Source: Salinivirgaceae bacterium (GTDB taxonomy: Bacteria; Bacteroidota; Bacteroidia; Bacteroidales; SZUA-534). From it: 64,000 nt of DNA. The position numbers were made by a program, and so were the translations under genes. Below the pieces are notes generated by a model. That model was not told where the DNA came from, made no database searches, and saw nothing but the letters and a program-made list of their open reading frames with translations. This document shows, piece by piece, positions 16,061 through 43,468 of this stretch (positions are counted from its first letter, which is position 1; every line of letters begins with the position of its first letter). The stretch is taken from the NCBI GenBank assembly GCA_017645945.1, contig JAGCNL010000018.1:64249-128248 (forward strand). Direction: 5' to 3'.

Positions 16061-16530
16061 TGGAATATTTAGGAGTTAGGAGTTAGGAATTAATAATGAA
16101 CAATTAATAATTAACAATGAATCAGATGTTTAGTGGGTTGAGAAAGTTTAGAAAGTTTAGAAAACTCAACAGCGAAGCCCCCGATAGTTATCGGGATAAG
16201 CATTAGGCACTAGGCATTAGTATAAAAGTTCATTGTCAATTGTTCATTGCCTCAAGTCCAAGACTAAACACTCCCCTCTAACCCTTCACAGGCACTAGGT
16301 GTTGGGTGTTGGGTGTTGGGTGTTAGGCATTAGAATATTTAGGAGTTAGGAGTTAGGAGTTAGGAGTTAGGTATTAATAATTAACAATTTAGGGAAAGGT
16401 CGAGAAGACTTGGAAACTCTACTTTCTCAACCGCGTAGCGTCTAAACTTCTCAACCTCTAAACGATTCACCAGTTCACCGATTAAACAATTAAACAGTTC
16501 ACCGATTAAACAATTAAACGGTTTTGGGTT
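16061..16530. repeat. Mosaic of short-period tandem word repeats
   Basis: TTAGGAG x3 (16069-16089) and x5 (16339-16373); GGTGTTG x4 (16298-16325); CATTAGG/CACTAGG (16201-16220); AGAAAGTTT units (16141-16165); a 23-nt unit x2 (16470-16520); palindrome CCCGATAGTTATCGGG (16180-16195). Confidence 0.85.
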
Positions 16531-16535
16531 GTTTT

Positions 16536-16678
16536 GGATAAGTTTGGTTAGAGATTGATTTTGAACAATTTTGTTTTTAAATTTTATAAAATTTCTGCCC
16601 GTCAGGGCATGCAACATATAAAAAAACGAAGGGGCGATTTTCATCGCCCCAACGTTTTATCTCTAACCGATTTTATCC
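16536..16678. repeat. Inverted-repeat element enclosing the terminator of giant gene 1
   Basis: GGATAAGTTTGGTTAGAG (16536-16553) faces CTCTAACCGATTTTATCC (16661-16678). Confidence 0.55.
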
Positions 16679-18622
16679 GATTCAATCCGAATAATATCAA
16701 TTATTTATCATTAATCGTTTATCATTAAACGTTAATCATTAATCATCACGCGTTTGGCAGTGTTGCCTGTCTTTACTACGTAAATGCCTGAGCCATTAAC
16801 CTGAATCTCGGTGCGGCCAGCCTCAGCGGCTACACGCTCAATCAAGCGGCCCATTGCAGTGTAAACGAAGATGTCGCTGTCAGCGTTCTCAACCACGATG
16901 GTGTTACCGTAAGCGAAGATGTTCACGGCCTCGGCAGCCTCGTCGGCAACAGCAGTGTTGTCGTCTTTCTCGAAGATGGCTGTGAATTCGAAACCATTCG
17001 CAGTGACTTGCTGCAGCAGTTCAGCTGTAAGCGTTACAGTGCGTGGGTTGTCAAGTACGCTGTCGCTCCACATCACGAAGTGGTAGCCAGAATCGGCAAC
17101 GGCAGTGAGAGTGATGGTTGCACCCAACTGAAGTGTGCCTGAAGAGGCTGTGATGTTACCATTCTTGGCGTTTACAGTAACTGCATAAGAAGCTTTCTTG
17201 AACGTAGCAGTGTATGTCTTGTTGCCGGTTACAGTCACCTTGCGCGGGTTGTCGGTGTTGCCGTCGTCCCACTTAGAGAAGATGTAGCCTGCATTAGCCT
17301 CTGCAGTCAGAGTTGCCTCTGCACCATGCTCATAGGTGCCTGCGCCCTCAACTGTACCATTCTTAGCTTTGACTGTCAGCTCGTAGCTGTTGATGGCAAA
17401 CACAGCACTGAACGAAGCATTGCCGGTAACCTCAACGCTGCGGGTAGCGTTTTTCACGCTGTCGGTCCACATAACGAAGCTATAACCCTTGTTGGCTGTA
17501 GCCTTGAGAGTAGCCGTTTCACCGTAAGCGTAGTCTCCCGCGCCTGTGATGGTTCCGTTGGCCGAAGTGTCAACACTTATTGTGTAGATGTTGGCTGCAA
17601 ACTCGGCTGTGAACGACAGGTCGCTGGTAACTGTAACCTTGCGGGTTGCTGTCTCCACACCGTCGCTCCACTTGCTGAAGTGGTAGCCAGTGTTGGCAGT
17701 AGCGGTGAGTGTTGCCTCAGCGCCGTGGTTGTAGGTGCCTGCGCCCTCAACTGTACCGTTGCTGCCCGATGCACGAACAGTGTAGCTGTTGATTTCGAAC
17801 TCGGCAGTGAACGACAGATTGTCGGTTACAACAACGGTGCGCGATGCGCGGGTTTCGCCGTCGCTCCACTTAACAAAGCGGAATCCCTCGGCTGCTGTTG
17901 CGCTGATGGTTGCATTTTCACCATAGGTGTAGGTGCCTGCGCCTTCAACAGTACCGTTGGTTGCTGAAACAGTCACAGCATAGCTGTTGATTGCAAACTC
18001 AGCCTTAAACTCAAGGTCGCTTGTAACAGTAACCTTGCGGGTTGCGGTCTCAACACCGTCGGCCCACTTAACAAAGTGGTAACCATCGTTGGCAACAGCG
18101 GTGAGAGTAGCCTCTGCACCATGATTGTAAGTGCCTGCGCCCTCAACCTTACCGTTAGCGGCCGAAGCCTTAACAGCGTAAGTGTTGATTGCAAATTCTG
18201 CAGTAACCGTAGTGTTCTCGCTAACGGTGATTGTGCGCTCGGCGTTGGTGTTGCCATCGCTCCAGCTAACAAAGTGATAACCTGCATTGGCTGTTGCTGT
18301 AACCTTTGCCTGAGTGCCATAGGTGAACGTGCCGCCACCAGTTACAGTACCGTTGGCGCCTGCCAGAACCTCAAGATCATAGCTGTTGATTGCGAACTGA
18401 GCAATAACTGAAGCTGTTTTTGTAACAGTGTACTCATACGGGTTCTTGGTGCTGCCGTCATTCCACTTAACGAAACGATAACCCTGATTAGGTGTAGCTG
18501 TGAGCTTAACCTTCTCGTTGGCGATGTAGTTACCTGAACCAGTTGCGCTACCACCCTCACCTGCAGTAACAGTAAGAGTGTAAATGTTGGCATCCTCAGG
18601 AATAAACAACGGAGACAGAGTC
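16555..18622 (-). repeat. Shared 3' module, copy 1 (8 B-repeats, sorting domain, terminator, downstream region)
   Basis: It is colinear with 27950-29990 at a constant offset of 11377 nt at the stop codons. One 9-nt net indel is explained by three extra residues. Identity was roughly 85-90% in the stretches I compared by eye. Confidence 0.85.
16618..16650 (-). terminator. Rho-independent terminator of giant gene 1
   Basis: On the minus strand, GGGGCGAT-GAAA-ATCGCCCC is followed by TTCGTTTTTTT. Confidence 0.8.
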
Positions 18623-21600
18623 AGATTGCTGGTAAGAGTAACTGTGTACTGGCTGGCGGTGTTAGTAGTTGTCCAGCGGGCAAACTTGTAGAACTCGTCA
18701 GGTACAGCCTCGAATGTAAGCTCTGTACCATGATTGTACGGGTCTGAGCTTATTCCAACAGTATCGTTTCCAACTACAAGTACAACATGGCCGTGTTCGG
18801 TATTAACTGTCACATTGTAAGTGTTGATTTCGAAGCTAGCCAAATATTCGGCGTTGTTAGTCGACACAGTGAATGTGCGTTTTGCATTCGTCTCTCCGTC
18901 GCTCCATCCTGTAAAGTGGTAGCCAGTGGCCGGAACAGCAGTGAGTGTCACTTTTGAACCGAAAGCATGGCTGCCTGCGCCGTCAACTCTACCATTTCCT
19001 TCAACGTTGGCGATGATGTCGTAGTAGTTAGGCTCAAAGACTGCTGTCAGAGTGGCGTTGCCTTCAACCAGATAGCTACGAGCGCTCGATTCTGCGTCAT
19101 CGTCGGTCCAGTGCGAGAAGTGATAACCCTCGTTAGCGGCTACCGCAATATTAGCATACGAATTCCAAGCATATTGGCCTTCGCCCATAATAACTCTACC
19201 GTTCTCGGCTACAACCGAGATGTTGAATGTATCGACAGCGAATTTGGCTACGAAAGATGAATCACTCACTACAACAACATTGCGCGGGTTGTTCTTGTCG
19301 CCGTCAGTCCACTGAACAAAGTGGCAGTTTTCTTCTGCTTCGGCAGTGAGAGTAGCAGTCTCGCCCTCACTATAGACGCTTCCGCCAGATACATATCCAT
19401 ACCAGCTGTTGTTGGCCACTGCGCTAACAGTATAGAGGACATCATTCACGCCTGAGAAGATTGCCTCAAGAGTAACATCTTCATAAACGTAGTATGTGTA
19501 AGGATTCTCGGTGCTGCCATCGCTCCAACGAACAAACTGGTTGCCTTGGTCGGCTGTGGCGGTGAGAGTGATTTTGGCACCATAATTATAGAATTTTTTA
19601 TCAGCACCTTCAACTGTGCCACCGTTAGCAACAACGGTCAGTTGGTAAGTGATAGGCTCAAACTCGGCGTAGAACTCACCTCCGGATTTGTTAAGGTTGA
19701 TAGTGCGTTCCGGATTGGTGCTGTTGTTATCGTGCCAACGCACAAAGCGGAAGCCCTCAGAAGCAACAGCCTCAACCAGAATCTTACCGTTGCTGAAACT
19801 GCTACTGCATTCTACAACGCCCGATGGCTCCCAATCGATAGGCACAACAACAAGCTCAGGTGATGGCTCAACCTCTGGTGCTGGCACATATTCGCCAAAT
19901 GTTGCAACTTTGCCTTTGTAAACAATTGAACCACCTGCAAACAAGATTGTACCATCAACGGTTAAAGTAGCATTGTTGGTTATCTCCAACGATGTCTCTT
20001 CCGAAAGAATGAGAGTCATTTCTTCAGGAAGGGTCATATCAACTGCCAAAACAACATCGCCTACAGCAAACAACACTGGAGCCGAATAAGGCATTGCAAC
20101 ATAACCAGTTACAAGATTCTTGCTATTGTTGAACGTTGGCCAGTAGTCTTCAAAAATATTCTGATACCAAACGTTGTTATCGTTCTGGTTAAGCATATAA
20201 CCCACATAGCCCATTTCGAAAGCCATGCTTGAAACGCCTTCGGTTACTCCTTGATCGTCTCCCTGAGTATTACCAATACCAACTTGCGGCCCATTTCTAT
20301 GATTCAAATAGTAGCAGTTTGAAATGTGCATATTGGCTGAACCGCTTGGGCCATCTATAAAAGAAACACCAAGAATGCCGCCTATGCATTCTCCGTTAAG
20401 TTTGAGTTTGCCAATATTGTAGCAATTAGTTATAGAAGGATTTACGCCTCCTCCGCAGATACCACCAGCAAAATATCCATAAACCAAGGATGTGCTGTAA
20501 CAATTGTTTATTACACCACCATTCAATTCACCGCAAATACTTCCTGCGACTAATGCTGCGAAATAGGAATCAATAACTCCAACATTTGCAATTTCGCCAT
20601 TTTTCACTGAGCCAAACAATCCCACACCAACCTCGTCTTCGATGTAGGTAACCAGACCACTGACGGTGTGACCATTGCCGTTGAATGAGCCGCAATATGG
20701 ATTCTGGTTGTCTTCGTCTACGTATGATAATCCTATCGGTATCCACTCTTTAATGTCGTTAGCATCAAAGTCATCGCTGAGGTCGCCGTCCTCGTCAAGA
20801 ACATTTTCGTTAACAACAATGTCAGCAATCAGCTCGGCATTGGCATCGGTTCCCTCACCGCTGTTGACAAACTCGGCAAACCAATAGAGCTGACCGGCGT
20901 TGCCAATCAGGTAGGCATTTTGTGCCTCGCTCCATGTTGCTTCTTCATAAGCACCGCAGACGGTACAAATTCCGTTCTCAAACTCATGTTCCTTCACATC
21001 GTCTCTAACATTGCTGAACGAATGACAAGGCGATGTTGGATAAACCATTCCGTGGTTGCTGTCCAGGCTTGGTGTGGCATCCTCGCCAAGAGTCTGATAA
21101 TAAACAATACCCACCTCGAAGAGTTGGTTAAACATATAAGCCACATAGCCGTTTGCAAACTGCTCCTTTGTGGCCGATGTGGTTACACCTTCCTCATCGC
21201 TTAAGCTACCATCATTGGTACCAATTCCATTTTGTTGAACCCTGTCACCATCAAGGGTACTGCCTTTAAGATAGTAGCAATTTAGCATGTGTCCGTTTTC
21301 TGCGAAAGAGCCTACAATAGCTCCAACGTAGACACCATATCCATTAACAATGCCTGTATTGTAGCAATTGTATATGTAGTCTCCCTGCGATCTACCGCAT
21401 ATACCACCGCAATAAGAGACTTCGCTATAACTTTCTGAAACAATAATTGACGTGTTGTAACAGTTGGTTATATTAACTCCTCCAGAAGAATAACCCAATA
21501 TGCCACCAACATTATTGGCACCATAGATGTAAGAATCGACAAGGCCTACATTACGGATTTGAGCCCCTTCAGCGGCATAACCAAACAATCCGACACAAGC

Positions 21601-24600
21601 TCCACCCGCAGGGTAGGGATTATTGCCGTTGGAATTATCGAAAAACAAGCCGCTAATGGTGTGTCCTTGTCCGTCAAAGAAGCCTGTATAACCGCCTTCC
21701 GAAGCAATTCCTATCGGTGTCCAGACTTTAAAATCATCGCGGTTAGGAATACCATTCTCGCTAAGAACATTTTCGTTAACCACAATGTCGGCAGTCAGTA
21801 TGGCGTTGGCCGATACTCCCTCGCCGCTGTTCACAAAGTCGGCGAACCAATAGAGCTGACCGGCGTTGGCAATCAGATAGGTATCATGTTCTGAGTCATA
21901 TTCGGGTTCGTTAATCAAACCGCAGACGCATTCACCGTTAACAAACACATGTTCTGTATGGCTCTCGCCAGTGTTGTTGTACGGGCAAGGCTCCGATGTG
22001 TAAACCACTCCATGCTCGCTGTTAAGGGTTGGGTTGGCGTCAGAGCCAATTGTCTGGTACCAAACAACATCTTCCTCATTGCTTGAATAACCATTAAGAG
22101 CATAGGCAATAGCACCGACGCGGAACTCAATGGCTGTGGCCGCGGTGGTTGCATCGTCAACTGGTTCATCGCCAGCGCCAACACCACCATAAGTTGTGCC
22201 ATTCCAATTAGATGCACTGCCTTCCAAATAGAAGCAATTGCTGACAGTGCCGTAATTTTTGCCTACAATGCTGCCGGTAAAATTATAACCATGCACCTCG
22301 CCAGTGCTGAAACAGTTGGTTATTGAACCGCTGTCGTAAATATAACCGCAAATACCGCCGACAACTTCACTGGCATTAATATATGATGATGTATTGAAGC
22401 AGTTGGTTACTGTGGTTGCGCCTTCAGCCCTGCCAACAATGGCACCAACATAAGCGTCACCCATAATAGCAGAACCGATAACACCTAAATTTTGGATGGT
22501 TGCGTCGTAGGTCACTCCAAACAAACCCTTGTAGTCTTCATTCGATTGTAAATACAAACCACTGATGGTGTGTCCCATGCCATCGAATGTTCCATAATAA
22601 TCGTAGTCATCGTTTCCGATAGGTGTCCATTCTATTAACGTGCCTAATGCCGATGGATCGTAAAAGGCGCTCATCAAATTGGCGTTAACCTCAATGTCGG
22701 CTGTCAGGTAGGCGTTAGGAGCATAGTCGGGAGAGTCGTATAATTCACCACTATTCACCATATCGGCAAACCAGTAGAGCTGACCTACATTGGCAATCGC
22801 GAAGGCATTGGCCTCCTCATCCCATGCAGCAGATTCGTGTTCGCCGCAAACGCAAACACCATTTACGAATACATGCTCTTTCTCAGAAAGCGCATTGGGG
22901 TTGTTGCCGAATTCCGACGGGCAAGGCATTGAAGCATAAACCTCAGCGTGACTGCTGTTCAAGGTTGGCAATGCATCGCTTCCAATTGTCTGATAATAAA
23001 TAGTGTAATCGACGCTCATATTGATATTGCCAGCCACAAAGCCATTGCTGAACTGCTCGGCAGTGGCGGGTGTGGTTGAACCTTTGGAATCGGGGCGCGA
23101 ATAGCCGCCTGGATAACCTATGCCATTTTGTTCCTTACCACCACAGATGGCGCTTCCGGCCAAATAGTAGCAGTTGGTAATCATTCTTTCCGAGTCATTT
23201 TCTCCAACAATACCACCAATGAAGCCATAGTTGGTAAGGACAGGACCACCACCCATGCCGACATTGACATCATCGACTTCATAATTGCAAATGATTCTAC
23301 CAGTGTTGAAACAGTTGGCTATACTGCTTGAATAAGATGATGAAGAATATGCATAACCTACAATACCTCCGCCCATCGCTTGTTCAACAACAATTGTGGA
23401 AGTGTTGAAACAGTTGGCTATGGTAATGTCACTACCAATAGCCCAGCCTACAATACCACCAACCTCAAAACTTCCGTGCAGATAAGAATCGATGACACCA
23501 ACATTTACGATGGTTGCATCGTCGCCAACTACGCCGAACAATCCTATGTTAATTCCTCCATCAGGGTAGCTTTCGTCCTCTGTATTATAATAATACAAAC
23601 CGCTCACGGTATGGCCCTGGCCATCGAATATTCCATGGTAACGTGAATTGTTAGTTCCAATCGGTGTCCACTCAATAAAGTTGTTGTCGTCGAGGTCGCC
23701 ATTCAGAGAGCCATCAGCGTTGAGCACATTAGAGTTAACAACAATGTCGGCGGTCAGAATCGCGTTAGCATGGTTGTCCTCGTTGTTCACATAATCAGCA
23801 AACCAGAGAAGTTGTGTGGCATTGGCAATCTCGAAGGCATTGAGCTCCTCATTCCATTTAGCCTCTTCGGCTGCACCGCATATAGTACAATGTCCGTCGA
23901 CAAACTCATGATCTTTAAAGTCTGTTGAGTTGCTGTACGACTGGCAAGGCTCCGTCAGGTAAACAACAGCGCTGTTAGCGTTCAGCGTTGGATAGACATC
24001 TTGCTCTAATGTCTGGCGCCAGTTGGGCTGGCTGTTGTTCTGGTTGAGCAGATAGGTAACCTCACCACTTGCAAACTGGCTGAAGGTTTTGAATGAACCA
24101 CCATTGGCGTTGCCTACAGAGTTCTGCAAAACGTAGTTGTTTCCTGAGGTGCCGCCACTACCAGAATAAATGCCGCCAAAATTGGCGTTTGCAGTAACAG
24201 TTCCAGCATTGAAACAGCAGGTTATTGTGCCGTTCCCTATATAGCCGCAAATGCCACCTGCATACTTGCCAAGGCCCTCAACACTGCCTGTGTTGTAGCA
24301 GTTGGTTATCAACTTAGTGTCGAGACCGTTTATTCTACCTGAAATACCGCCTGCATAAGAGTTGTTACTTGTGCTATTAGCTGCCTTTGCATAAATTCTG
24401 CCTGCATTGTAGCAGTTTTGAATGGTACCGGCATACTGGTAGCCGCAGATGCCACCGGCATTGCTGCAGTAGGCCTCTACATAACCTGCGTTGTGGCAGT
24501 TGTCGATCAGAACAACCGACGAGCTTTCTATGTAACCGCAAATACCGCCGGCATTGGATTCACCATTGACGGTGGCAACAACAGTAGCCTCGTTGTAGCA

Positions 24601-27516: not shown

Positions 27517-27949
27517 TAAAAATAAAATTAAAAAGGTTTATTAAATGATTAAAAATGAAATATATATACGCTGTTTTGCAAAATTGCAAACGAGCGAAGG
27601 AAAAAGGGTATTTAAGTTGGAAGGACTACAACCAGCACAACTCCGCGCACCTTCAGGCACACAGACCGCACAACATGGCTGGGTTCTAAATTCGAATCTT
27701 TCCATTAAAGTTTATCCAGTAAATAATTGGTGTAAACAATTGACAAATGTATGAAATAATTTTATCAATGATGAAAAATGTAGTGGGGATGCATTAAAAA
27801 ATGATGGTGGTGATACGCGAAAAATATTAAGAAATTGATTTTTAGTCGCTAACCAAACGAACCCTAATTTATCCCAAAAGTTACGGTGTCGCTTACGCGA
27901 GAAATTTGAAGAAAATTAGGTTTAAAAATTAAACAAAATTTATAATTAG

Positions 27950-29990
27950 TTGATTTTGAATGATTTTCTTATAAATTTTCTAATAATTTCTGCCCGTTAG
28001 GGCATGCAATAAAAAATAGGGGCGAATATCAATTCGCCCCTAAATTTTAATCTCTAACCGATTTTATCCGATTCAATCAGAACAATATTAATCGTTTATA
28101 ATTAACCGTTAATCATTAATCATCACGCGTTTGGCTGTGTTGCCTGTCTTCACTACGTAAATGCCAGCGCCATTAATCTTAATCTCGGTGCGGCCAGCCT
28201 CAGCGGCTACACGTTCAATCAAGCGGCCCATTGCATTGTAAACGAAGATGTCGCTGGTGGCGTTCTCAACCACGATGGTGTTGCCGTAAGCGAAGATGTT
28301 CACAGCTTCGACAGCCTCATCAGCAACGTCGGTGTTAACCTCGAAGATAGCTGTGAATTCAATGCTGTCCTTGACTTGCTGCAGCAACTCGGCTGTAAGC
28401 GTTACAGTACGCGGATTCTCAGTTACGCTGTCGCTCCACATAACGAAGTGGTAGCCCTCATCGGCAATAGCGGTGAGTGTGACAGTAGCACCAAGCTCCA
28501 ACGAATCAGCTGCGCCCGTGATTTGGCCGTTTTCAGCGTTGACAGTAACAGAGTAGAGTGCCTTCTTGAACGTAGCAGTGTAGGTCTTGTTGCCAGTTAC
28601 AGTCACTGTGCGCGGGTTGTCGGTGTTGTCATCGTCCCACTTAGAGAAGATGTAACCTGCATCGGCCACTGCTGTCAGAGTTGCCTCAGTGCCATTCTCA
28701 TAGGTGCCTGCGCCCTCAACTGTACCATTCTTTGCTTTGACTGTCAGTTCGTAACTATCGCCTGCGAACACAGCCGAGAATGTTGCGTTGCCTGTAACCT
28801 CAACGGTGCGGGTAGCGGTCATAACGCTGTCAGTCCACATCACGAAGTGGTAACCCTTGTTGGCTGTTGCCTCGAGAGTTGCAGTTGCTCCGTAAGTGTA
28901 AGTACCTGCACCGGTGATGGTTCCGTTAGCAGCCGAATCAACACTGATAGTGTAGCTGTTGACTACAAACTCGGCGGTAAAGCTCAAGTCGCTCTTCACG
29001 GTAACCTTGCGGGTTGCTGTCTCCACACCATCGCTCCACTTGGTGAAGTGATAGCCTGTGTTGGCCACTGCGGTGAGAGTTGCCTCTGCGCCATAGTTGT
29101 AAGTGCCTGTGCCCTCAACTGTGCCGTTGGTGGCCGATGCGCTGACTGTGTAGCTGTTGATTTCGAACTCAGCAGTTAATGTCACGTTATCAGTTACAAC
29201 AACGGTGCGAGTTGCCTTGGTCTCGCCGTCGCTCCATTTAACAAAGTGATAGCCCTCAGCAGCTGTTACGCTGATGGTTGCACGCGAGTTGTAATCGTAG
29301 GTTCCTGCGCCAGTGACTGTACCGTTGGCAGCTGTAACCTTCACTGTGTAAGTGTTAATTGCGAACTCAGCAGTGAACGACAAGTCGCTTGTAACGGTAG
29401 CCTTGCGGGTAGCGGTCTCTACGCCGTCGCTCCATTTAACAAAGTGGTAGCCCTCAGCAGCCGTTGCAGTGAGAGTTGCCTCTGCACCATGGGTGTAAGT
29501 ACCTGCACCAGTAACCGTACCATTGGTGGCCGAAGCCTTAACAGTGTACTCGTTTATAGCAAACTCTGCTGTGAATGTAGCATCGCCGTCGACAGAGATT
29601 GTACGCTTGGCGTTTTTGTCGCCGTCGTTCCAGCTAACAAAGTGATAACCTTCGTTGGCTGTGGCTGTGATTTCTGTCTGGCCACCATAGTTGAAGGTGC
29701 CGCCGCCAGTCACACTACCATTGGCTCCGGCCACAACCTTAACCACGCAGCTGTTAAGAGCAAACTCGGCCTTGTAGGTCTTGGTGGCAGTAACGGTCAG
29801 CTCGCGCTGTGCCTCTTTGTTGCCATCGTCCCATTTAACAAAGTGGTAACCATCGTTGGCAGTTGCCGAAATGGTTGCCTTCTCGTTGGCAATGAACGTG
29901 CCTGAACCTGTTGCGGTTCCACCCTCGCCAGCTTCAACTGTAACTGTGTAAATATCAGCAGTTGCCGAAATAAACAGCGGAGTCAGAGTC
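27950..29990 (-). repeat. Shared 3' module, copy 2
   Basis: Paralogous to 16555-18622 (see that entry). Confidence 0.85.
28010..28040 (-). terminator. Rho-independent terminator of giant gene 2
   Basis: On the minus strand, GGGGCGAAT-TGAT-ATTCGCCCC is followed by TATTTTTT. Confidence 0.8.
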
Positions 29991-35900: not shown

Positions 35901-38900
35901 TTGTCGCATCCATAGAACGCACGCGACTTGATTTCAGTAACTGTTTCGGGAATAGTCACCTGCTTCGTCTCCACTCCATTGATGTAGAGGCTTGCGCCAT
36001 TCCAGAGAGGGTTCGAATAACTATTTCCGTATGCAATTCTGCAGAGGCTCGAGATGCTTCCAAAATCAGCACATGTTATGTTATAAGAATCATCGAACGC
36101 GCTGCTGCCTACTTGGGTAACCGAGGCTGGTATTCTGACTGTTGCAAGATTATCGCAGCTACGGAACGCATCTTCACCAATGGTTGCCATGCTTGTGGCG
36201 CCGCTCATGTCGGCGGTTACAAGATTGTCGCAGTCGTAGAACGCACGGTAGCCGATTGAGCTAAGACTGGTGGCTTCGCTCATATCCACAGTTTCGAGGG
36301 CATCGCAATCGTAGAACGCACCATTGGCTATAGTTGTCAGCCCGGTGGCGTTGCTCAAGTCGATGGTTTCGAGGGCACCGCAGTAAGAGAAGGCATCACC
36401 TTGAATGCTTGTTACCGATGCCGGAATGGTGACTGATGTCAGTGCACTGTAGCCGCTAAACTCAGTGACTCCAATGCTGGTGACAGCATCAGTGAATGCT
36501 ACGGATGTTATCTGGCTTCTGAGGCCATACCACGGATAATCGTTTGCCTCGTCGAAGTTGTAGTTTTTCTTCACCGTAAGCAACCCGCTGTTGCTGAGTG
36601 TCCAGTTTTTGTAGTCCCACATCACCTGGTGGTTGTTTCGATTCCAACTGCTGTTCCAGCCGTCGGGTTTCGATTCGGCCTCACACCAGATGACGAGCTC
36701 GCTGCTGCCGTCGATGGCATAGGTGCCTATTTCAGCAACATTGCCATGAACAACAATCTTGGTGAGGTTGCTGCAGCCATACAATGCATACTGGCCAATG
36801 GCTGTCACGTTTTCAGGAACAACAATCTCTGCCGTCTCCACATCATTTATGAAAGCATTTGCACCATTGCGTAAAGGATTGGAGGATGCGTCGGCATATT
36901 GCATTTCCAAAAGGCTCTTTTCGCTTGCAAAATCAACGCGGCTGATGCGGTTGCTTTCATAGAATGCCTCGCTGCCGATGGTGGTCAGGCTTGTGGCGCC
37001 GCTCATATCAACGGTTGTGAGGTAGCTACAGCTATAGAATGTCCGATAGCCAATGGAAGTCAGGCCAGTAGCCTCACTTAAATCAACAGTTAGAAGATTG
37101 TCGTAGTCGTAGAATGCATAATTGCCAATTTCAGTAACCGCAGCTTCAAACTTAACGGCCTTTATGTCGCTCTGGAAATAATACCACGGATAGTCGCCCG
37201 AATTATCGTAGCTGAACGATTTCTTAACGGTGAGCAGACCATCGTCGCTCAGGCTCCAGTTGTTCATGTCCCATATTACTGTGCGGTCGCTTGGATTCCA
37301 ATTGCTGTGCCAGCCTTCGGGTTTTGCCCCTGCCTCGCACCAAATTGTAAGGTTATCGCAGCTGTAGAATGCATAAGTACCCACACTTTCCACCCCATCA
37401 TGAATAACAACTTTGGTGATGTTGTCGCAATTGTAGAATGCATATTGACCGATTGATGTCACTTCGGCAGGAATAGTAATCTCTGTTTTTTCCTCACCAT
37501 TGATGTAAAGTGTCGCACCATTATAGAGCGGATTGGAATCATTGTCCTTAAAATCAATGTTGCAAAGACTGTTGAGCGATGCAAAATATACGCTCGAAAT
37601 GTTCGAGCAACTGTAAAACGCATCGTTGCCAATTGTAGTAACTGTTGACGGAATGGTCACCTTTTTAATGTCGTTGTAGTAGCCCCACCCGTAGGCATCG
37701 TGGAATGCCCCTTCACCAATAGTGGTGACACCCTCGGCAAATGTTACACCCTTGATGTTACAACCATAATCATACTTATACTGACGCCATGGATACTCGT
37801 TCCAATTGCAACTGACATTGGCTTTAACTGTCAAAAGACCGTTCTCATCAATGTCCCAGGCATCGCATAGCCAGCGTGCAGGGCGGCCGTTTTGATTCCA
37901 ATAGTCGTGCCAACCATCAGGTTTGTTAGCTGCCTCACAGTTGATGGAGAGGTTGCTGCAATCAGCGAAAGCATAATAGCCCATTGAAGTCACTGTTGCA
38001 GGAATATAAATTGATGTGAGGTTGTCGCAGTTGCAGAACGCATATTGTCCAATTGACTCAAGGTTTTCAGCATTGCTGAAATCCACTGACGTGATGCTTA
38101 AGTCTTTGAACACTTCGTCGGCAATGGTGGTGACTGTCTGCGGAATAACAATGTCGGTGGCCGAGCCCATGTAGCCTATCAGCTCGGTTCTTTCGGAACC
38201 AGCGGTAAAGATGAATCCGTTTTCATCAATATCAATATCGCTACTTTTGAAATATTTTTTGGCACCCCATGGCGAATTTGTCTCGTAGCTATTGTAGTTT
38301 ATAACATTTGCAATATTGTTGAAGGCATATTGGCCAATGGAGCTTATGCTCAACGCCGACGGAATGGTAACCGTCACATCTGAGCATTTATCAAACGCAT
38401 AGGCACCAATGGTTGTAACTCCAGCGGGGATTGTGACCGAGCCGCTTTTGCTGGTATAGCCTGTAAGATTTGTCTTGGCCTCGTCGGCAAACACAAAATT
38501 GTTTTCGATGGTGCCGTTGCGGGTCAGCGCACCGAATTTTTCGGAAGCATCGCCTGCTGAGCCGTTATATATTATGTTCTTTATGCCGTAGAAAGCATCG
38601 CTGCTGATATTGGTGACGGTCGATGGTATTTCAATCGAGGATAAAAGGTTGGAACAACCACTGAACACATAATAGCCAATACTGATAAGTGATGTGGCCT
38701 GGCTGAAATCTACCTCTGTCAGCGATTCACAATTTGAGAATACGTAAGAGCCAACTGACTTGACCGACGACGGGAGGGCAATCTCAGTCAGACTGTTGCA
38801 ATATTGGAACGCATAATTGCCTATAATCACAACCGATTCTGGAATGACAACGGAGGTCAGCTTGTCGCAGTAGTAGAACGCATACTGGTCAATGGTTGCA

Positions 38901-41900
38901 AGGCTTATGGCGCTGCTGAAATCAACGCTCTCAAGCTGGTGGCACTCATAAAATGCTCCGGCTCCAATGGTTTCAACCGATGCAGGAATGGCAACCTCAG
39001 TCAGGCTGGTGTTGCAGAAGGCATATTCACCTATTTGGGTGAGCTGAGTGGCCTGACTGAAATCGACTGATGTAATACCTTTGTATTCAAACGCGTGGTT
39101 GCCAATGGTTTCAACCGATGCTGGAATGGTGACCTCAGTGTCCGAGCCTATGTATTTGACAATAGTGGTCCGCGTTGCGTCGGCATACACAAAGTTGTCG
39201 TCGATGCTGCCGTTGCGTGCTCCGGCTCCCCAAGTGTCGGTTGCGGTGCCATAGGGGCCATTGTAGTTGATGTTGCCCACATCGTTGAAAGCGTTCCGCT
39301 CAATATATGTCACTGTCGACGGGACATCAATAGTGATTAGTTTGGAGCAGCCGCCAAAAGCATTGTAGCCAATTGATGTAACCGATGCCGGAATGGTTAT
39401 CGAGCTTAAGTTGGAGCAACCGCTGAAGGCATTGGTGCCGATAACGCGTGTGTTGGCATTGATGGTGTACTGCTCGTCAGAACCAGAATTGACAGACGCC
39501 ATATATAAATATGGGTTTGCGGTGTTGCCCAAATAGCGTATCCCTTCCGACACGTTGTATTCCAAATTGCTGTAACTGTTGAAAGCATATTCTCCAATGA
39601 ATGTGACCGACGATGGTAGTTCAATTGTTTCCAAACTGCTGCAATAGTAAAACGCATATTTGCCGATGGAGGTTAGGTTTGTCGCATTACTAAGATTTAT
39701 ATCTGTCAGAGTGTTACAGTATGCGAATGCGTATTCGCCAATGGTTGTCAGGCTTGTTGCATTGTCCAGATTTATATCGGACAGAATGTCACAGCTGTAA
39801 AACGCGTATTTGTCGATGGTTGTCAGGCTTGTCGCATTACCCAGATTTAAATCAGTCAGAGCGTCACAGTCATAAAACGCATATTTTCCGATGGATGTAA
39901 GGCTTGTTGCATTGCCCAAATTTATATTTGTCAGAGCGTCACAGTTGTCAAATGCGTTATCGCCGATGGATGTAAGGCTTGTTGCATCGTCTATATTTAT
40001 ATCACTCAGATTGTAGCAGCTTTGGAATGCATAGTCACCAATGGACTCCATTGTCGAAGGTAACACTACCTCGGTCAGATTATCATATTTATTGTAGCCA
40101 TTGTAGAACGCATATTTGCCTACGCAGCTCACGTCCTCGGCAAACACAACCTTGGTAATTGATTCTGCCTTTGAATACCACGGATAATCAGTGTAATTAT
40201 TCGCATCAACACACTTGTTGATGGTGAGGACGCCATTGGCATCAATCTCGTAGCTGTCGGCACCCCAGACAACCTGACCGCCGTAAGGATTCCAATATTC
40301 GTCCCACCTGGCAGGCTGTGAGCCCTCGTTGCACTCAAAAATAGGTGCGGTACCGTCGTTGCCGCAACCAAACGCTTGATAGCCCATTAATTCTATCCCT
40401 TCAGGAATGGTTATTTTTTTGTTGGAAAGGTCGCAGCAGTTCCAAAAAGCAAAGGGGGCAATAATCTTGGTGTTGCTGTTGATGGTGCAACTGGTGATTT
40501 CGGTCGACGAAGCTTTGGCTAAAATCAGATATGAGTTGCTGCTGCTGCCCACATAGCTGGCTCCGCCCTCTGTTGTCGGGAAGTCGGTGCAGCCATCAAA
40601 AGCACCATACGCCACCGCTTTGACTCCGTTTTCAACTGAGAACGTGCTTATATTGCCAGGCGTAACGGGCTTCATCAGAACAACATACGGATTAGTGTTG
40701 TTGCCTAAATAGTAGAATCCGCCCTGCTGGGTAAAAAGCAATGAGCTGCAATTGTAGAACACATCATAATCCACACGAACTATTGATTCCGGAATACTTA
40801 CCGATGACAGTGCTGCGCAGTCGGAGAAAGCTTGGCTGCAAATATAGCGAAGGTTTGTGGCATTGCTCATATCGACAGTTTCAAGCGAACTACAGCTACT
40901 GAACGCATTGTAGCCAATGTATTCAACCGATGCAGGAAGGCTCACCGCTGTCAGAGTTGTACAATCGAAGAACGCATAGTCGTAAATATAGCGAAGGTTT
41001 GTGGCATTGCTCATATCGACAGTTGCCAGCGAGCTGCAGCCATAGAAAGCATTGTAACTAATGTATTCAACCGATGCCGGAATACTTACCGTTGTCAGGG
41101 CTGAACAATTGTAGAACGCATTATCGCCAATTGCCTGAACCGAAGCGGGGATGCTCACCGCTGTAAGGGTTGTGCAATCGGAGAACGCTCCTGTTCCAAT
41201 AGTCACAACCCCTGATGGGATGTTAATACTACCGCCATCGCCAATGTAGACTGCAAGATAAGTCTTTGTGTTGTCGCTATACACAAAGCCGTCTTCAACA
41301 TACCCGTTGCGGACCATGGCTCCCCATTTATCGGAGCTGTAGCCAGCATTGCCATAATAGTTGATGCACTTCACTCCTTGGAAGGCTTCGTAGCCAATGC
41401 TCGAAACCATCTGCGGTATGTTGAGCGTCGTTATCCCATTGTTGGAATAGAACGCATGATAACCTATCTCAACAAGGTTTGTTGCCTCGCTGAAATCAAC
41501 GCTCACAAGATTCCGATAACTACCGTAAGTGTTATCAAATGCATAACTGTCAATAGTGGTTACATCCGCACCCACCTTTACACTTTTAATTTGTGAACTC
41601 ACTCCATACCATGGGTATGTATCGTATGAGGTACATCTGTAGTCTTTGTTGAACGATAGCTCGCCGTTCTCGTCGATGCTCCAGTTGTCGTAATCCCAAA
41701 TGGTTGGGACGCGTTTCCATCCATAAAAGTAGCCGTAATTCCACTGACCATCCCAGCCGCTGGCGCTCGCATCTCCAACGCAATAGATTGTAGAAATGTT
41801 GACGCTATGAGTGAACACTCGGTAACCCATTGTGGTAACCGATGCAGGAATGGTCACGGTGGTCAAACCTTCGCAATTGCTGAATGCATAATCGCCAATC

Positions 41901-43018
41901 GTTGTAAGCCCTGTGGCCTGGCTGAAATCGACTGACGTGATGCCACTGTTCTCGAAAACATGGCTGGCAATTGCGGTCACTGTCTGTGGAATCACAATAT
42001 CACCTCTTTCGCCATAATATGCGCCGATAACTGTTCCGTTGGAACCGAGAAGGAAATCCCCTTCTCTCACACCATTTCGCACTCTCGCACCCCACGTATC
42101 GTTCGCTGTGCCGGCAGAGCCACTGTAAATCACATTCGTCAAACCAGCAAAAGCATTTTCACCAATTGATGTAACTCCAGAGGGGACATTTATTGTGGTT
42201 AAATTCGTCAAACCAGCAAAAGCATTTTCACCAATTGATGTAACTCCCGAAGGAACATTTATCGTGGTTAAATTAGAGCAATTTTTAAATGCTTCTCTTC
42301 CAATATATTTTGTATTGGAGTTGATAGTGCATTCCGTAATACCAGTTGATGTTGGTCCAACCAAAAACAAATAGGGATTTGCTGCAGTGCCTAAATAATT
42401 TAATTCATCTTCATCATCCGTGTTGTATTCCAGGTTGTTACAGCCACTGAAAGCATTGCAATCGATATTGGTTACTGCCGATGGGATTTCAACTGTTCCT
42501 CCCGCACCAACATATTTGATAAGATGGGTTTTAGCATTGTCAGCATAGACAAAGTCTCCGTCTTTAACCGCTATGGCTGCCGTCACTTCAACACCCTCAT
42601 AACATTCCCAACCATAGGTCAAAAAATGGAGTAGCATATTTGATGTACTACCCGCGACCGATACAAATTGACCGCTTGGCTCACCAAATTTGCCCAATAA
42701 ATTATCTTCGACTGTGGAACCATCGTAAATAGCAAAATATTCCACCTCATCATCATCATTCGCTTTCACCGTTCCGCTAATGTTCAAACACATACCGTTG
42801 GCGACTTTGACAAGCAAAGTACCTTCTGTATAGATATCGTAGTTTGCATCGGGCCCAGAAGCGTCATAGATTTTACAAGAGTAACCTACCGCTTTGTCCG
42901 TCAGGTCAAGTGTAGATGGTGTCGTTCCATTGTCGTTTGGAATCAGATACACATCAGTTTGTGCCCATGAGACAGCCGTTGCAGCCAAAAGGCACACCAA
43001 GAAGAGCATTTTCCTCAT
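28109..43018 (-). CDS. Giant T9SS-secreted BspA-like surface protein (about 4969 aa): CUB-like head, LRR/Trp-rich super-repeats, 3 PPC-like domains, 18 B-repeats, sorting domain
   Basis: The ORF is uninterrupted. I chose the ATG at 43018, giving MRKMLFLVCLLAATAVSWAQ (signal peptide); the track start at 43105 is a non-ATG extension. LRR_5-type units read IP..VT.IG..AF..C..LT. The C-terminal 700 aa are paralogous to gene 1. Confidence 0.93.
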   Translation of the reverse strand: MRKMLFLVCLLAATAVSWAQTDVYLIPNDNGTTPSTLDLTDKAVGYSCKIYDASGPDANYDIYTEGTLLVKVANGMCLNISGTVKANDDDEVEYFAIYDGSTVEDNLLGKFGEPSGQFVSVAGSTSNMLLHFLTYGWECYEGVEVTAAIAVKDGDFVYADNAKTHLIKYVGAGGTVEIPSAVTNIDCNAFSGCNNLEYNTDDEDELNYLGTAANPYLFLVGPTSTGITECTINSNTKYIGREAFKNCSNLTTINVPSGVTSIGENAFAGLTNLTTINVPSGVTSIGENAFAGLTNVIYSGSAGTANDTWGARVRNGVREGDFLLGSNGTVIGAYYGERGDIVIPQTVTAIASHVFENSGITSVDFSQATGLTTIGDYAFSNCEGLTTVTIPASVTTMGYRVFTHSVNISTIYCVGDASASGWDGQWNYGYFYGWKRVPTIWDYDNWSIDENGELSFNKDYRCTSYDTYPWYGVSSQIKSVKVGADVTTIDSYAFDNTYGSYRNLVSVDFSEATNLVEIGYHAFYSNNGITTLNIPQMVSSIGYEAFQGVKCINYYGNAGYSSDKWGAMVRNGYVEDGFVYSDNTKTYLAVYIGDGGSINIPSGVVTIGTGAFSDCTTLTAVSIPASVQAIGDNAFYNCSALTTVSIPASVEYISYNAFYGCSSLATVDMSNATNLRYIYDYAFFDCTTLTAVSLPASVEYIGYNAFSSCSSLETVDMSNATNLRYICSQAFSDCAALSSVSIPESIVRVDYDVFYNCSSLLFTQQGGFYYLGNNTNPYVVLMKPVTPGNISTFSVENGVKAVAYGAFDGCTDFPTTEGGASYVGSSSNSYLILAKASSTEITSCTINSNTKIIAPFAFWNCCDLSNKKITIPEGIELMGYQAFGCGNDGTAPIFECNEGSQPARWDEYWNPYGGQVVWGADSYEIDANGVLTINKCVDANNYTDYPWYSKAESITKVVFAEDVSCVGKYAFYNGYNKYDNLTEVVLPSTMESIGDYAFQSCYNLSDINIDDATSLTSIGDNAFDNCDALTNINLGNATSLTSIGKYAFYDCDALTDLNLGNATSLTTIDKYAFYSCDILSDINLDNATSLTTIGEYAFAYCNTLTDINLSNATNLTSIGKYAFYYCSSLETIELPSSVTFIGEYAFNSYSNLEYNVSEGIRYLGNTANPYLYMASVNSGSDEQYTINANTRVIGTNAFSGCSNLSSITIPASVTSIGYNAFGGCSKLITIDVPSTVTYIERNAFNDVGNINYNGPYGTATDTWGAGARNGSIDDNFVYADATRTTIVKYIGSDTEVTIPASVETIGNHAFEYKGITSVDFSQATQLTQIGEYAFCNTSLTEVAIPASVETIGAGAFYECHQLESVDFSSAISLATIDQYAFYYCDKLTSVVIPESVVIIGNYAFQYCNSLTEIALPSSVKSVGSYVFSNCESLTEVDFSQATSLISIGYYVFSGCSNLLSSIEIPSTVTNISSDAFYGIKNIIYNGSAGDASEKFGALTRNGTIENNFVFADEAKTNLTGYTSKSGSVTIPAGVTTIGAYAFDKCSDVTVTIPSALSISSIGQYAFNNIANVINYNSYETNSPWGAKKYFKSSDIDIDENGFIFTAGSERTELIGYMGSATDIVIPQTVTTIADEVFKDLSITSVDFSNAENLESIGQYAFCNCDNLTSIYIPATVTSMGYYAFADCSNLSINCEAANKPDGWHDYWNQNGRPARWLCDAWDIDENGLLTVKANVSCNWNEYPWRQYKYDYGCNIKGVTFAEGVTTIGEGAFHDAYGWGYYNDIKKVTIPSTVTTIGNDAFYSCSNISSVYFASLNSLCNIDFKDNDSNPLYNGATLYINGEEKTEITIPAEVTSIGQYAFYNCDNITKVVIHDGVESVGTYAFYSCDNLTIWCEAGAKPEGWHSNWNPSDRTVIWDMNNWSLSDDGLLTVKKSFSYDNSGDYPWYYFQSDIKAVKFEAAVTEIGNYAFYDYDNLLTVDLSEATGLTSIGYRTFYSCSYLTTVDMSGATSLTTIGSEAFYESNRISRVDFASEKSLLEMQYADASSNPLRNGANAFINDVETAEIVVPENVTAIGQYALYGCSNLTKIVVHGNVAEIGTYAIDGSSELVIWCEAESKPDGWNSSWNRNNHQVMWDYKNWTLSNSGLLTVKKNYNFDEANDYPWYGLRSQITSVAFTDAVTSIGVTEFSGYSALTSVTIPASVTSIQGDAFSYCGALETIDLSNATGLTTIANGAFYDCDALETVDMSEATSLSSIGYRAFYDCDNLVTADMSGATSMATIGEDAFRSCDNLATVRIPASVTQVGSSAFDDSYNITCADFGSISSLCRIAYGNSYSNPLWNGASLYINGVETKQVTIPETVTEIKSRAFYGCDNITSVYIPATVTSVGEYVFNSCDNLTISCEAGSKPDGWHSNWNNSYRPVKWRCNDWNIDENGLLTVKANIIYDSYYDYPWYEQNFGITGVTFTEGVTSIGQSAFYDANGWGRYSNIETVTIPSTVTEIGEYAFYNCDALQSVTIPAGVENVGDYAFYECNQLVVRTYNDVKYPNSWSSQWCENYRITFDINNWSLNDAGLLTVRKNYSYNSSGDYPWYPINDRVTGIEFAGNVTQIGSNEFYNCFRVVSVDVPDEITSIGSNAFYGVKNVNYYGPAGTITDKWGALARNGYADGDFLYADATKTNLVGYFGNGGSVTIPSTVTTISSNAFYECEGLTSVTIPASVQAIGDNAFYNCSALTTVDLNQATGLKTIGNSAFSNCNELANIDLSRATGLTSIGSTAFYNCALTSVTIPAGIEKIYSSTFSDCSNLSTVNLSNATSLKTIGSNAFYNCDALTSITIPASVELIESYAFGYCDNLATVNFSSATNLKRIEYCAFYECDALTSITIPASVEYIGSSAFYGCDALSSADLTSATKLSIIESSLFGNCGELTSITIPAGVESIYSTAFSYCYKLATVNFSSAANLKTIGSSAFYDCDALTSVPIPGTVTSIDSYAFQNCDELMTVTIPESVTSVGEYAFSDCPKLRFNSTGGFDYLGNTTNPYRVLVRPSNGNTDMSGLRVHDGMKVVVGGAFDDCYNWDVVENNAYYIGNSENPHLILTAATSQEIDECTINRATKFIAGYAFYNCYNLTEILIPLSVESMGQGAFYDCYNLGTINCETGIEPESWYDWHYWYTKVNWAYGGWELDNDGVLTVYRDVDLPDYSYYPWRNSGNSNSITKVVFAEGVSLVGRSAFDNGWGNYYNLAEVVFPSTLKSIGSQAFRYDYNLTSVVWNSVERIDRYAFYNCYNLTSVDLRGAEYIDEYAFADVYKLTNVAIPVTVQYMGEGVFQNSISDSKVLCEADEQPAGWNEYWNTNGYQVIWHYNNNVLNITSNNTTMGTVTGNGIYTYNDYAEIVATANPGYQFVRWSDGSINPDHSLNVTDHLTLEAIFASSGEIYTVSVSYDGGMGTVTGATQYVSNETATLIATPYEHYHFVEWADNHSTNPERSFTVNGSAVLEYAAVFEVDQHQLTVNSDHGQIGGDGPGTYDWGSWPSLVAIPNDGYFFVNWIDDNNNTFGGTSTSVYMSGDKEYTAVYHEIQTVNTGSTQVVASGQQVNCKFVAPMTGEYTIFSSESDNNAYGILYDSEMNQLAYDDNSYGQDNEFQIIYNLTEGETYYISAGFYYGWNFGNTTLVIKEPLVISVTAEHGTVSGAGAYSYNSTVQLSVDEVQDGWFFTKWSDGVVLNPRNITVKAAASYTAEFERVQTVTEGENTILATRTSTDNCVFTPAVSGTYVIFSDASGYNMYGCLLDADKNLLADNSGLDFQIQQYLQQGRKYYIGVSFQSNTIANTKLMIKDPATISVAANGDGTVSGANTYIYGTAVSVAASANAGSFFVQWNDGITNNPYLFNADEDEQFTAEFSEIQTLNVGENNVYSTFGRFAAETGVPNPNCKFVPAVSGPYAFIANHESFDTYGELYDSNMRLLTSNDNYDSNTNQFRLEYDLVEGETYYISAGFFNYAAGAGYIPLTVGAPIHIMATTDPERGTIEGAGGYAYGSNVTLTANANSGFAFVRWSDGNTDNPRTFKAREDAEYVAVFRLESQGVFNVTVTANNDSWGTVEGSSEFIEDETATLSATPAAHYHFVQWNDGVTYNPRYEVVKGELTFEAQFAVDQHHMEVLAENGTTTGTGDYDWNQLVKITATPDEGHYLARWSDDSNSDASERYVRVKSDTTITAIFEPYQYSVYLWVSEGNGTVSGDGDYAYGTDATINAVPGEGYDFKRWYCEYDGNYYTENPLTVTVKHGYTYSAQFALKTYTITVETEHGTVDGADAEYTHGQEASFTAVPETGYKFVRWDVTNTANPFVTTVTSDLTLTPLFISATADIYTVTVEAGEGGTATGSGTFIANEKATISATANDGYHFVKWDDGNKEAQRELTVTATKTYKAEFALNSCVVKVVAGANGSVTGGGTFNYGGQTEITATANEGYHFVSWNDGDKNAKRTISVDGDATFTAEFAINEYTVKASATNGTVTGAGTYTHGAEATLTATAAEGYHFVKWSDGVETATRKATVTSDLSFTAEFAINTYTVKVTAANGTVTGAGTYDYNSRATISVTAAEGYHFVKWSDGETKATRTVVVTDNVTLTAEFEINSYTVSASATNGTVEGTGTYNYGAEATLTAVANTGYHFTKWSDGVETATRKVTVKSDLSFTAEFVVNSYTISVDSAANGTITGAGTYTYGATATLEATANKGYHFVMWTDSVMTATRTVEVTGNATFSAVFAGDSYELTVKAKNGTVEGAGTYENGTEATLTAVADAGYIFSKWDDDNTDNPRTVTVTGNKTYTATFKKALYSVTVNAENGQITGAADSLELGATVTLTAIADEGYHFVMWSDSVTENPRTVTLTAELLQQVKDSIEFTAIFEVNTDVADEAVEAVNIFAYGNTIVVENATSDIFVYNAMGRLIERVAAEAGRTEIKINGAGIYVVKTGNTAKRVMIND
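28370..32950 (-). repeat. B-repeat array (18 units) of gene 2, interrupted by three PPC-like domains
   Basis: GY.FV.W.DG units. PPC-like inserts lie at about 32010-32310, 31535-31815 and 31005-31335. Confidence 0.8.
33000..42560 (-). repeat. BspA-type leucine-rich repeat region with 8-9 interspersed Trp-rich modules
   Basis: There are dozens of 22-24-aa units (IP.SV..IG..AF..C..L..V). Modules of about 70 aa read CEA..KP.GW...WN...W...W.(I/L)...G.LTV...YPWY. Confidence 0.85.
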
Positions 43019-43378: not shown

Positions 43379-43412
43379 AATTGATTTTGGAAAGTTCTGT
43401 CTGTATGCGCAC

Positions 43413-43443: not shown

Positions 43444-43468
43444 TTTGCATTATATCGCGGCAAGCGGA

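Follow-up and report, generated by a model that had tools for sequence, protein, structure and literature searches.

What do two adjoining giant genes with unrelated N-terminal parts and a common C-terminal end encode, and does the locus that holds them exchange its variable parts? We addressed this question in a 64,000-nucleotide stretch of DNA from a Salinivirgaceae bacterium (assembly GCA_017645945.1, contig JAGCNL010000018.1, positions 64,249 to 128,248; hereafter the window), in which genes A and B lie in tandem on the minus strand, bounded by tpiA on the B side and by a GmrSD-like gene on the A side. Our findings suggest that A and B are probably independently expressed, surface-anchored fibrillar adhesins exported through a type IX secretion system (T9SS), which carry different binding heads and occupy a two-slot locus that diversifies through recombination within the family and selection on the exposed parts. 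The interval between tpiA and the GmrSD-like gene consists of two cassettes, each with a leader, a head, a stalk, a C-terminal domain (CTD) and a terminator.

Organization of the locus

Gene A (16732..27516, minus strand) encodes 3594 residues from an ATG start, and gene B (28109..43018, minus strand) encodes 4969 residues from the ATG at 43018; a longer open reading frame (ORF) of B with a GTG start occupies 28109..43105. These calls agree with the original prediction, made from the sequence alone, of two co-oriented giant ORFs of 3594 and about 4969 codons separated by a 592-bp spacer, and our recount gave the same total of 8563 codons, or 40% of the window. The span first proposed for the pair, 16381-43018, is accurate at its upper end, takes in about 350 nt of 3' flank at its lower end, and refers to a feature of the minus strand. 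The spacer between B and A (27517..28108, minus strand) contains the terminator element of B, a copy of a 26-nt repeat, a -7-type box and the A-type leader. The spacer between tpiA and B (43019..43468, minus strand) contains two further copies of the repeat and a 114-nt stretch that shares 82% identity with a segment of the B-A spacer.

The layouts of both proteins were derived from self-comparison, a Pfam scan and hidden Markov models (HMMs) built on the window's own modules. Residues 2538-3594 of A align with residues 3908-4969 of B at 60% identity, which bears out the proposal that both end in a common stalk of B-repeats and a sorting domain, and the two heads have no match to each other at 1e-5. 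The unique head makes up 71% of A and either 66% of B, if measured to the first B-repeat, or 79%, if measured to the collinear block; the 70-85% given at first for the differing N-terminal part was thus roughly right.

Assemblies of three other samples, produced with two assemblers, contain both genes at 99.98-100% identity. Gene B was called intact in two independent assemblies (L084 and L086), and gene A is 100% identical in the independent assemblies L091 and L092. The internal repeats of A and B are only 68-79% alike at the DNA level, which makes repeat collapse during assembly unlikely.

The common stalk and sorting tail

The stalk of A comprises 14 InlB-type B-repeats (residues 2561-3510; 16987..19836, minus strand), as defined by Pfam, self-comparison and the module HMMs, and that of B comprises 18 (residues ~3358-4885; 28364..32947, minus strand). 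The corresponding Pfam family, Flg_new_2 (PF18998), scores 489 bits in 13 stretches of A and 582 bits in 18 stretches of B, and self-comparison of both proteins gives a periodicity of 66-70 residues. The stalks are followed by the C-terminal sorting domains of A (16735..16986, minus strand) and of B (28112..28363, minus strand), the latter ending in ...KRVMIND. A third member of the family runs off the start of the window on the opposite strand. Its 3' end (1..447, plus strand, stop codon at 445-447, as first noted) encodes one B-repeat and a CTD ending in RVMIND; this tail is 55% identical over the last 105 residues, and its closest representative is P0304, a 1616-residue cargo protein with CUB, leucine-rich repeat (LRR) and B-repeat modules, at 67% identity.

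Scored singly against the T9SS type-A model TIGR04183 (cutoff 23 bits), the tails of A, B and the third gene reach 20.7, 22.8 and 22.9 bits, and on Pfam PF18962 the tails score 14.6-21.4 bits against a cutoff of 27. At the level of the family, 47 of 48 related tails match TIGR04183 at E <= 0.01, the best at 1.2e-7, and the PDB sequences nearest to the tail-family profile are the CTDs of HBP35 and RgpB from P. gingivalis. Motifs B (Y...G), D (GxY followed by I/V) and E (a basic residue near the end) are present in the tails, whose sequence pattern is ...IFVY.AMGRL...G.GIYVVKTGNTAKRVMIND. These motifs were defined in Prevotella intermedia, in which short and long CTDs are both cleaved and linked to glycan (PMC11969387). 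On the strength of the family search, the 47 TIGR04183 matches, the HBP35 and RgpB hits and the three motifs, we accept the tails of A and B as putative divergent type-A CTDs, and both proteins are T9SS-cargo-like, as the original prediction had held. NCBIfam scans of the window's tails and of the 48 family tails at E <= 10 gave type A and, more weakly, type C, with no type-B CTD.

An exhaustive search with the tail profile yielded 1323 cluster representatives, 455 of them at E <= 1e-10, and the match always lies at the extreme C-terminus, in proteins of up to 5636 residues. A word-indexed search with the same profile gave only short fragments at contig ends, on which many of the family's tails are found.

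The head of gene A

Protein A begins with a signal peptide recognized by inspection (MKKLFLFCTMLMALLLAGTGQVRA), followed by an orphan tip domain that we call A_N (residues 25-195; 26932..27444, minus strand), seven tandem GLUG super-repeats (residues 196-2440; 20197..26931, minus strand) and a connector of about 120 residues (2441-2560; 19837..20196, minus strand), after which come the 14 B-repeats and the CTD. The connector, delimited with the module HMMs, separates the GLUG field from the stalk and is carried by the chimeric proteins described below as well.

Besides Flg_new_2, Pfam recognizes GLUG in A, in accordance with the GLUG-type units first noticed in one of the heads. The limits of the super-repeat field rest on self-comparison, on homology to PDB entry 3N6Z, which is detectable in sequence at E 2e-12, and on AlphaFold2 (AF2) modelling. 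The super-repeats measure 290-345 residues each, are 45-69% identical in pairs, and each closes with a His/Cys knuckle, H-x5-8-G-x-C-x1-2-C-G. Structure prediction of individual head units, which had been proposed as a check, gave a confident model for the GLUG unit and a moderate one for A_N. The GLUG unit is modelled as a right-handed beta-helix (predicted local distance difference test, pLDDT, 80.5; predicted template-modelling score, pTM, 0.81). Its nearest fold neighbours are 3N6Z (E 5.7e-7) and the non-catalytic beta-helix domain of IgA1 metalloproteases (prob 0.9-0.97), and weaker ones include pectate-lyase-like helices and beta-solenoid adhesins.

These neighbours bear on the possibility that the heads are enzymes, with the beta-helix units of A cleaving plant or host polymers, either as lyases or hydrolases of polysaccharides or as a protease component. 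The rumen habitat from which the samples come would suit such a role, and pectate and pectin lyases, pectin methylesterases and polygalacturonases occur among the weaker fold matches, in addition to the IgA1 metalloproteases. However, the lyase and hydrolase matches have E values of 0.02-0.7 and probabilities of at most 0.35, and the match to the IgA1 proteases is limited to their non-catalytic domain. A motif scan of both proteins found no HExxH in A or B, which speaks against the enzyme-like heads considered in the original prediction. Most invariant columns of the GLUG unit hold G, N, C, I, L or F, a pattern that we read as structural rather than catalytic, and seven tandem copies suit a rod better than an active site. 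We therefore regard an enzymatic role as unlikely. The more specific assignment of A to the M26 IgA1 metalloproteases was rejected on the missing HExxH, the beta-helix (GLUG) domain being the only part in common.

The tip domain A_N has no match in Pfam, NCBIfam or the sequences of the PDB, even when searched as a profile of 21 sequences. An AF2 model based on a four-sequence alignment presents it as a beta-sandwich of the jelly-roll type at moderate confidence (pLDDT 65), and Foldseek returned weak matches, of which the lectin-like domain of Cwp84 ranks first and which include phage receptor-binding modules; since the model is only moderate, these matches are treated as hints. Among species representatives, 24 genomes (loci L100-L123) encode the domain, one to three times each and in cargo-like proteins of varied make-up; all belong to ruminant-gut Bacteroidales, and the isolates MN60 and HUN156 are among them. 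With its approximately 175 residues, A_N apparently defines an undescribed domain family. The remainder of the head is widespread: more than 3188 proteins match the head of A at E <= 1e-10, many of them 2000-4000 residues long, and GLUG heads elsewhere are joined to other C-terminal parts (Big_3, PF18657, dockerin, SLH, Flg_new). Among the proteins fetched as GLUG relatives, the A_N tip occurs only in the clade of A itself.

The head of gene B

Protein B is arranged as a signal peptide, a CUB domain, an LRR field, the 18 B-repeats with three inserts, and the CTD. Its signal peptide, again identified by inspection, starts at the ATG at 43018 (MRKMLFLVCLLAATAVSWAQ). The tip (residues 21-163; 42530..42958, minus strand) gave no Pfam match at E <= 5 as a single sequence; a profile of 12 N-termini of the family matches the CUB structures of cubilin (E 4e-24) and neuropilin (6e-12), and also PCPE-1, TSG-6 and C1r/MASP. 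This profile match upholds the CUB-like head first suggested, and the tip of B is a genuine CUB domain.

The LRR field (residues ~164-3357; 32948..42529, minus strand) is of the BspA type anticipated in the original prediction, with LRR_5 scoring 1498 bits in 28 stretches against a Pfam cutoff of 27.7. Within it lies a tandem array of LRR_8 type with a 75-nt (25-residue) unit in 4.9 copies (39647-40010, minus strand), which in the related strain L089 seems to differ by one unit from the window. A word-indexed search with the first 620 residues of B returned a list swamped by generic LRR proteins of about 1000 residues, with no close relative of B. The equivalog model of the HupY/LrrG adhesin (NF047961) was rejected for B at 479.6 bits against 1250, the LRR repeats being all that is shared. 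The model of the Mycoplasma gliding protein Gli349 (NF045861) was rejected as well, at 213.5 bits against 1750.

The stalk of B is interrupted by three inserts of about 100 residues (residues 3571-3675, 31994-32308; residues 3736-3835, 31514-31813; residues 3906-4010, 30989-31303; all minus strand). They had been described as PPC-like domains, and sub-threshold scores point only weakly in that direction: PF04151 gives 17-20.8 bits against a cutoff of 25.9, and in one insert only. The inserts are equally PA14-like, the top PDB match of their profile being the PA14 domain of RsgI3 (E 1.3e-4). On these sub-threshold scores they may tentatively be considered jelly-rolls of the PA14/PPC/GLEYA kind.

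Variation of the locus among related strains

The original prediction had proposed comparing the locus between related genomes, and strain WILK20 offers the closest view of its variability. The flanks are the same on both sides, and the flanking proteins are 92-100% (about 98%) identical to those of the window. The order between them is the reverse: tpiA is followed by a GLUG-type gene of 3829 residues, A', then by an LRR-type gene of 3263 residues, B', and finally by the GmrSD-like gene. Two contigs show the swapped order, and about 100 nt at the tpiA-A' junction have no match in the spacers of the window. The view that B had been deleted in WILK20 was discarded when the full locus showed the swapped cassettes. 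The heads are only 47% (A/A') and 32-38% (B/B') identical, the stalks about 75%, and the final ~200 codons of the A/A' pair 94-100%. The species representative L104 has the gene order of the window, with an A-type gene of 3156 residues and six units, and the B-type gene of L089 is 92-93% identical to B at the DNA level. A set of 80 species-representative loci anchored on tpiA shares only DoxX-tpiA with the window, none having a giant gene beside tpiA, and was uninformative because the species are too distant.

Identity along the two genes is mosaic. Compared with A, the protein P0005 shows 95-97% identity across the tip; the value falls to 35-70% for the GLUG field and rises to as much as 99% for the proximal stalk, whereas P0004 is 58% identical in the tip and 94-100% in the tail. 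Along the stalk, the nearest relative alternates every few units and is at times an LRR-type gene or a chimera instead of the ortholog. Related strains thus carry swapped, diverged and mosaic versions with differing unit numbers, where strictly conserved, non-modular orthologs would have contradicted the original prediction.

Chimeras extend this pattern. P0017 and P0018, from two samples, start with the B-type CUB and LRR modules and continue with GLUG units and the A connector, and the junction is the same in both samples. P0018 ends in the common stalk and tail, while P0017 lacks a tail and is apparently continued in the next ORF. Across the tail family, the module HMMs show heads, stalk lengths (0-28 units) and inserts (0-4) in free combination. 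The suggestion of interchangeable heads on a common stalk and anchor accordingly holds as an evolutionary pattern of swapped cassettes, chimeras and many head combinations; it is not supported as an active switch, the identical tracts between A and B being no longer than 36 nt.

Could the giant ORFs or the strain differences be artefacts of short-read metagenome assembly across repeats? Metagenome assembly is the source of all the sequences, numerous tails of the family come from tiny fragments at contig ends, and broken genes occur, as in the B-type gene of L089 and the tailless P0017. Against this stand internal repeats too diverged to collapse, the near-identical recovery of A and B from three other samples with two assemblers, a swapped order seen on two contigs together with junction sequence foreign to the window spacers, and a chimera junction repeated in two samples. 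We consider assembly error a highly improbable explanation. In the two split genes, the B-type gene of L089 (L089:6137-13421) is divided into ORFs of 1386 and >1619 residues, and in L099 (L099:10001-21169) P0017 is followed by a 631-residue B-repeat ORF; these could be frameshifts, pseudogenes or assembly errors.

The strong divergence of exposed heads beside neighbours that are about 98% identical also raises the possibility that A and B shield the cell as a protective or decoy coat, for example from phages, grazing protozoa or antibodies of the host, with variability as a means of escape. Variable defence-type genes adjoin the locus: besides the GmrSD-like gene, L089 carries a toxin-antitoxin pair and an Abi_2 gene, and an AAA_14/DUF4143 gene is absent in WILK20. 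The modelled tip of A, moreover, weakly resembles phage receptor-binding modules. On the other side, CUB, LRR and lectin-like modules are typically binding modules, and there is no direct evidence of phage interaction. As the main role of the two proteins, such a coat appears rather unlikely, and it would be compatible with adhesion.

Cassette borders and exchange within the genome

The homology between A and B extends about 165 nt past the stop codons and includes the intrinsic hairpin terminators, which are placed at 16631..16650 (minus strand) for A and at 28017..28042 (minus strand) for B. The two post-stop elements are homologous within each genome (81% in the window, 95% in WILK20, 80% in L104), and those of the window and WILK20 are mutually unrelated. 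At the other border, a leader of about 260 nt accompanies the A-type head in either slot, with 92% identity in WILK20 and 85% in L104. Its GC-rich part of about 200 nt (27517-27730, minus strand) is conserved upstream of A-type and chimeric family genes across strains, with copies at L097:9790-10000, L097:21675-21883, L098:560-769, L099:9790-10000 and L104:9735-9943. This part contains a perfect palindrome, GTTTGCAnnnnTGCAAAC, at about 27569-27596, which may be a candidate operator or leader hairpin. As the conserved leader shows almost no covariation with RNAalifold and no Rfam match, we claim no RNA element there; Rfam likewise returned nothing in the spacers and one tRNA elsewhere in the window.

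A 26-nt element, GGATAAATTnGGnTTCGTTTGGTTAG, is found in three copies (27849-27874, 43201-43226 and 43312-43337, minus strand) where none is expected, and is confined to the two spacers that lie upstream of these genes. It might serve as a site for a regulator to bind, or represent a small repeat element. Partial reverse-complement copies lie near 43350-43390 and 16520-16560.

A signal peptide and a separate terminator were recognized for each gene, as first proposed. The proposal of a probable promoter for each gene could not be confirmed: a single Bacteroidota -7 box, TACATTTG, is located 227 nt upstream of A (27751-27744), no exact box was found upstream of B, and the combined -33/-7 pattern has no match in the spacers. 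Sigma-70 promoter scans were discarded because their counts were no higher than in shuffled sequence and because they are not meaningful for Bacteroidota.

Do these borders serve frequent exchange? In one reading, A and B form a programmed variation system, in which cassettes or silent copies recombine often and switch heads, as in antigenic-variation loci. It would account for the cassette order swapped between the same flanks, for mosaic alleles and chimeras, for the 26-nt element, the 114-nt upstream stretch and the post-stop element that flank the cassettes, and for the further members of the tail family in the same genome. Yet the identical DNA tracts common to A and B number only 19, each 20-36 nt long, and the stalks are 77% identical at the DNA level. 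From the short tracts we conclude that the two genes have not exchanged sequence recently and are unlikely to do so often. Three assemblies made from separate samples carry identical sequence over A and B, orthologous tails are closer to each other than the paralogous tails of A and B, and no recombinase, invertible element or invertible promoter was seen in the 64-kb window. Programmed switching is therefore improbable. Recent gene conversion between A and B was also rejected, given the short identical tracts and the closer orthologous tails. The expectation that the architecture could support head swapping by recombination is consequently borne out between strains, through swapped order, mosaic alleles and chimeras, and shows no sign of ongoing operation in this genome.

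The repeats at the borders could, in principle, allow whole cassettes to be excised and reinserted. A stronger proposal is that the interval between tpiA and the GmrSD-like gene is a dedicated two-slot cassette holder, in which the 26-nt repeat, the upstream stretch and the post-stop element would help whole head-stalk cassettes to be cut out, put back and exchanged among the members of the family and among strains. We give this proposal a small chance; if true, it would represent a recombination-based system of surface variation in rumen Prevotellaceae that includes the undescribed A_N domain and a rare bacterial CUB domain.

Proposed role and relation to known systems

Returning to the surface-adhesin interpretation, A and B would be exported by Sec through their N-terminal signal peptides, and the T9SS would recognize the CTD of about 80 residues by its motifs B, D and E. 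The CTD would then be removed and the new C-terminus joined to a surface glycolipid, and the stalk of 14-18 B-repeats would keep the variable head far from the cell. B would display its CUB domain and a long run of BspA-type LRRs, with lectin-like jelly-roll inserts in the stalk, and A would display seven beta-helix units behind an orphan, lectin-like jelly-roll tip. For the heads, the most likely task would be ligand binding, for instance to glycans of plants or the host, to proteins or to other microbes. Gene order, the number of units and the sequence of the heads vary strongly among close strains, which fits recombination within the family and diversifying pressure on those parts that are exposed.

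We infer adhesion, surface anchoring and export, the last via the T9SS, from the sequences of the two proteins, and several points count against the interpretation. None of the single tails attains the curated cutoff for type-A domains. No core T9SS gene (porK/L/M/N, sov, porU/V) lies within the 64-kb window, and for this reason the secretion machinery is assumed. Polysaccharide lyases and hydrolases employ the beta-helix fold as well. Finally, all comparison sequences are short-read metagenome assemblies, in which repeats may drive misjoins, though the swapped order was seen on two contigs.

As a kind, A and B belong to the modular, variable T9SS surface proteins with LRRs and B-repeats, a familiar theme. 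The BspA/InlJ-type proteins of Tannerella, Porphyromonas and Prevotella pair a BspA-type LRR region with a CTD and are cargo of the T9SS. B likewise has LRR_5 stretches, a Sec signal peptide and a type-A-like CTD, and its route and surface display would be expected to be the same. B is several times longer than these proteins and carries, in addition, an N-terminal CUB domain, 18 InlB-type B-repeats and three jelly-roll inserts.

For A, the GLUG super-repeat shares both sequence homology and fold with 3N6Z (BACOVA_03286, a "putative IgA1 protease") and with the N-terminal beta-helix domain of the M26 IgA1 metalloproteases (6XJB, 7UVK). Unlike the Gram-positive M26 proteases, A has seven tandem units and no M26 catalytic domain, and bears a B-repeat stalk and a T9SS tail in place of the Gram-positive anchor. 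The GLUG-motif giants of Ruminococcus, Fibrobacter and other Bacteroidales have heads that match that of A, but their C-terminal parts differ. SprB-type gliding adhesins of Flavobacterium are also giant, repetitive T9SS cargo at the cell surface, and gldF and gldG are present in the window; however, the repeat types are unrelated, and SprB carries a type-B CTD, whereas the tails of A and B match type A and, more weakly, type C.

What is new here is the tandem array of beta-helices on a B-repeat stalk, the orphan A_N domain, the bacterial CUB tip and the swap of whole cassettes between the same flanks. A full-text literature search returned no paper on GLUG proteins in Prevotella or on the B-repeat/T9SS family. 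Prevotellaceae dominate the rumen and many guts, and to our knowledge little is known about how they attach to feed particles, host surfaces and other microbes. The locus supplies two very large candidates for T9SS-type fibres, whose exposed heads vary far more than any other part of an otherwise conserved neighbourhood. It also provides defined modules for work on ligands, namely the CUB tip, the LRR blocks, the lectin-like inserts, the beta-helix units and the orphan tip. The swapped cassettes and natural chimeras show how such proteins diversify, which bears on niche differences between strains, on pressure from phages and grazers and on the reading of metagenome bins, since these genes often break assemblies. 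General knowledge of T9SS cargo is unchanged by the locus.

Neighbouring genes and minor observations

The flanks of the cassettes form a variable, defence-type environment. The GmrSD-like gene follows A at 14823-15926, the AAA_14/DUF4143 ATPase gene that is absent in WILK20 lies at 46642-47847, and in L089 an insertion (L089:3661-5708) that carries a nucleotidyltransferase/HepT toxin-antitoxin pair and the Abi_2 gene separates tpiA from the B-type gene. The contig L086 equals the window across B and tpiA, shows 138 differences within 48500-50099 and then loses synteny; on sequence comparison, this segment looks like a recombination boundary between strains. The region 3' of A (15927-16731) contains short tandem repeats, with CTAACTC four to five times (twice), CCCAACA three times and a 24-nt unit in 2.7 copies at 16459-16523, and most of this region is missing in WILK20.

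Further away, the window encodes gliding or T9SS-associated envelope genes on the minus strand: gldF and gldG (57210-59638), both above the NCBIfam equivalog cutoffs, and a pair of lolA and a lolB2-like gene (4668-5794). Between the third tail-family gene and a tRNA gene (1118-1191), on one side, and this lol pair, on the other, lies an ORF of 702 residues without a Pfam domain (1938-4046, minus strand). Its N-terminus weakly matches the model of a Bdellovibrio "mosaic adhesive trimer family chimeric fiber protein," at 35 bits against a cutoff of 60.

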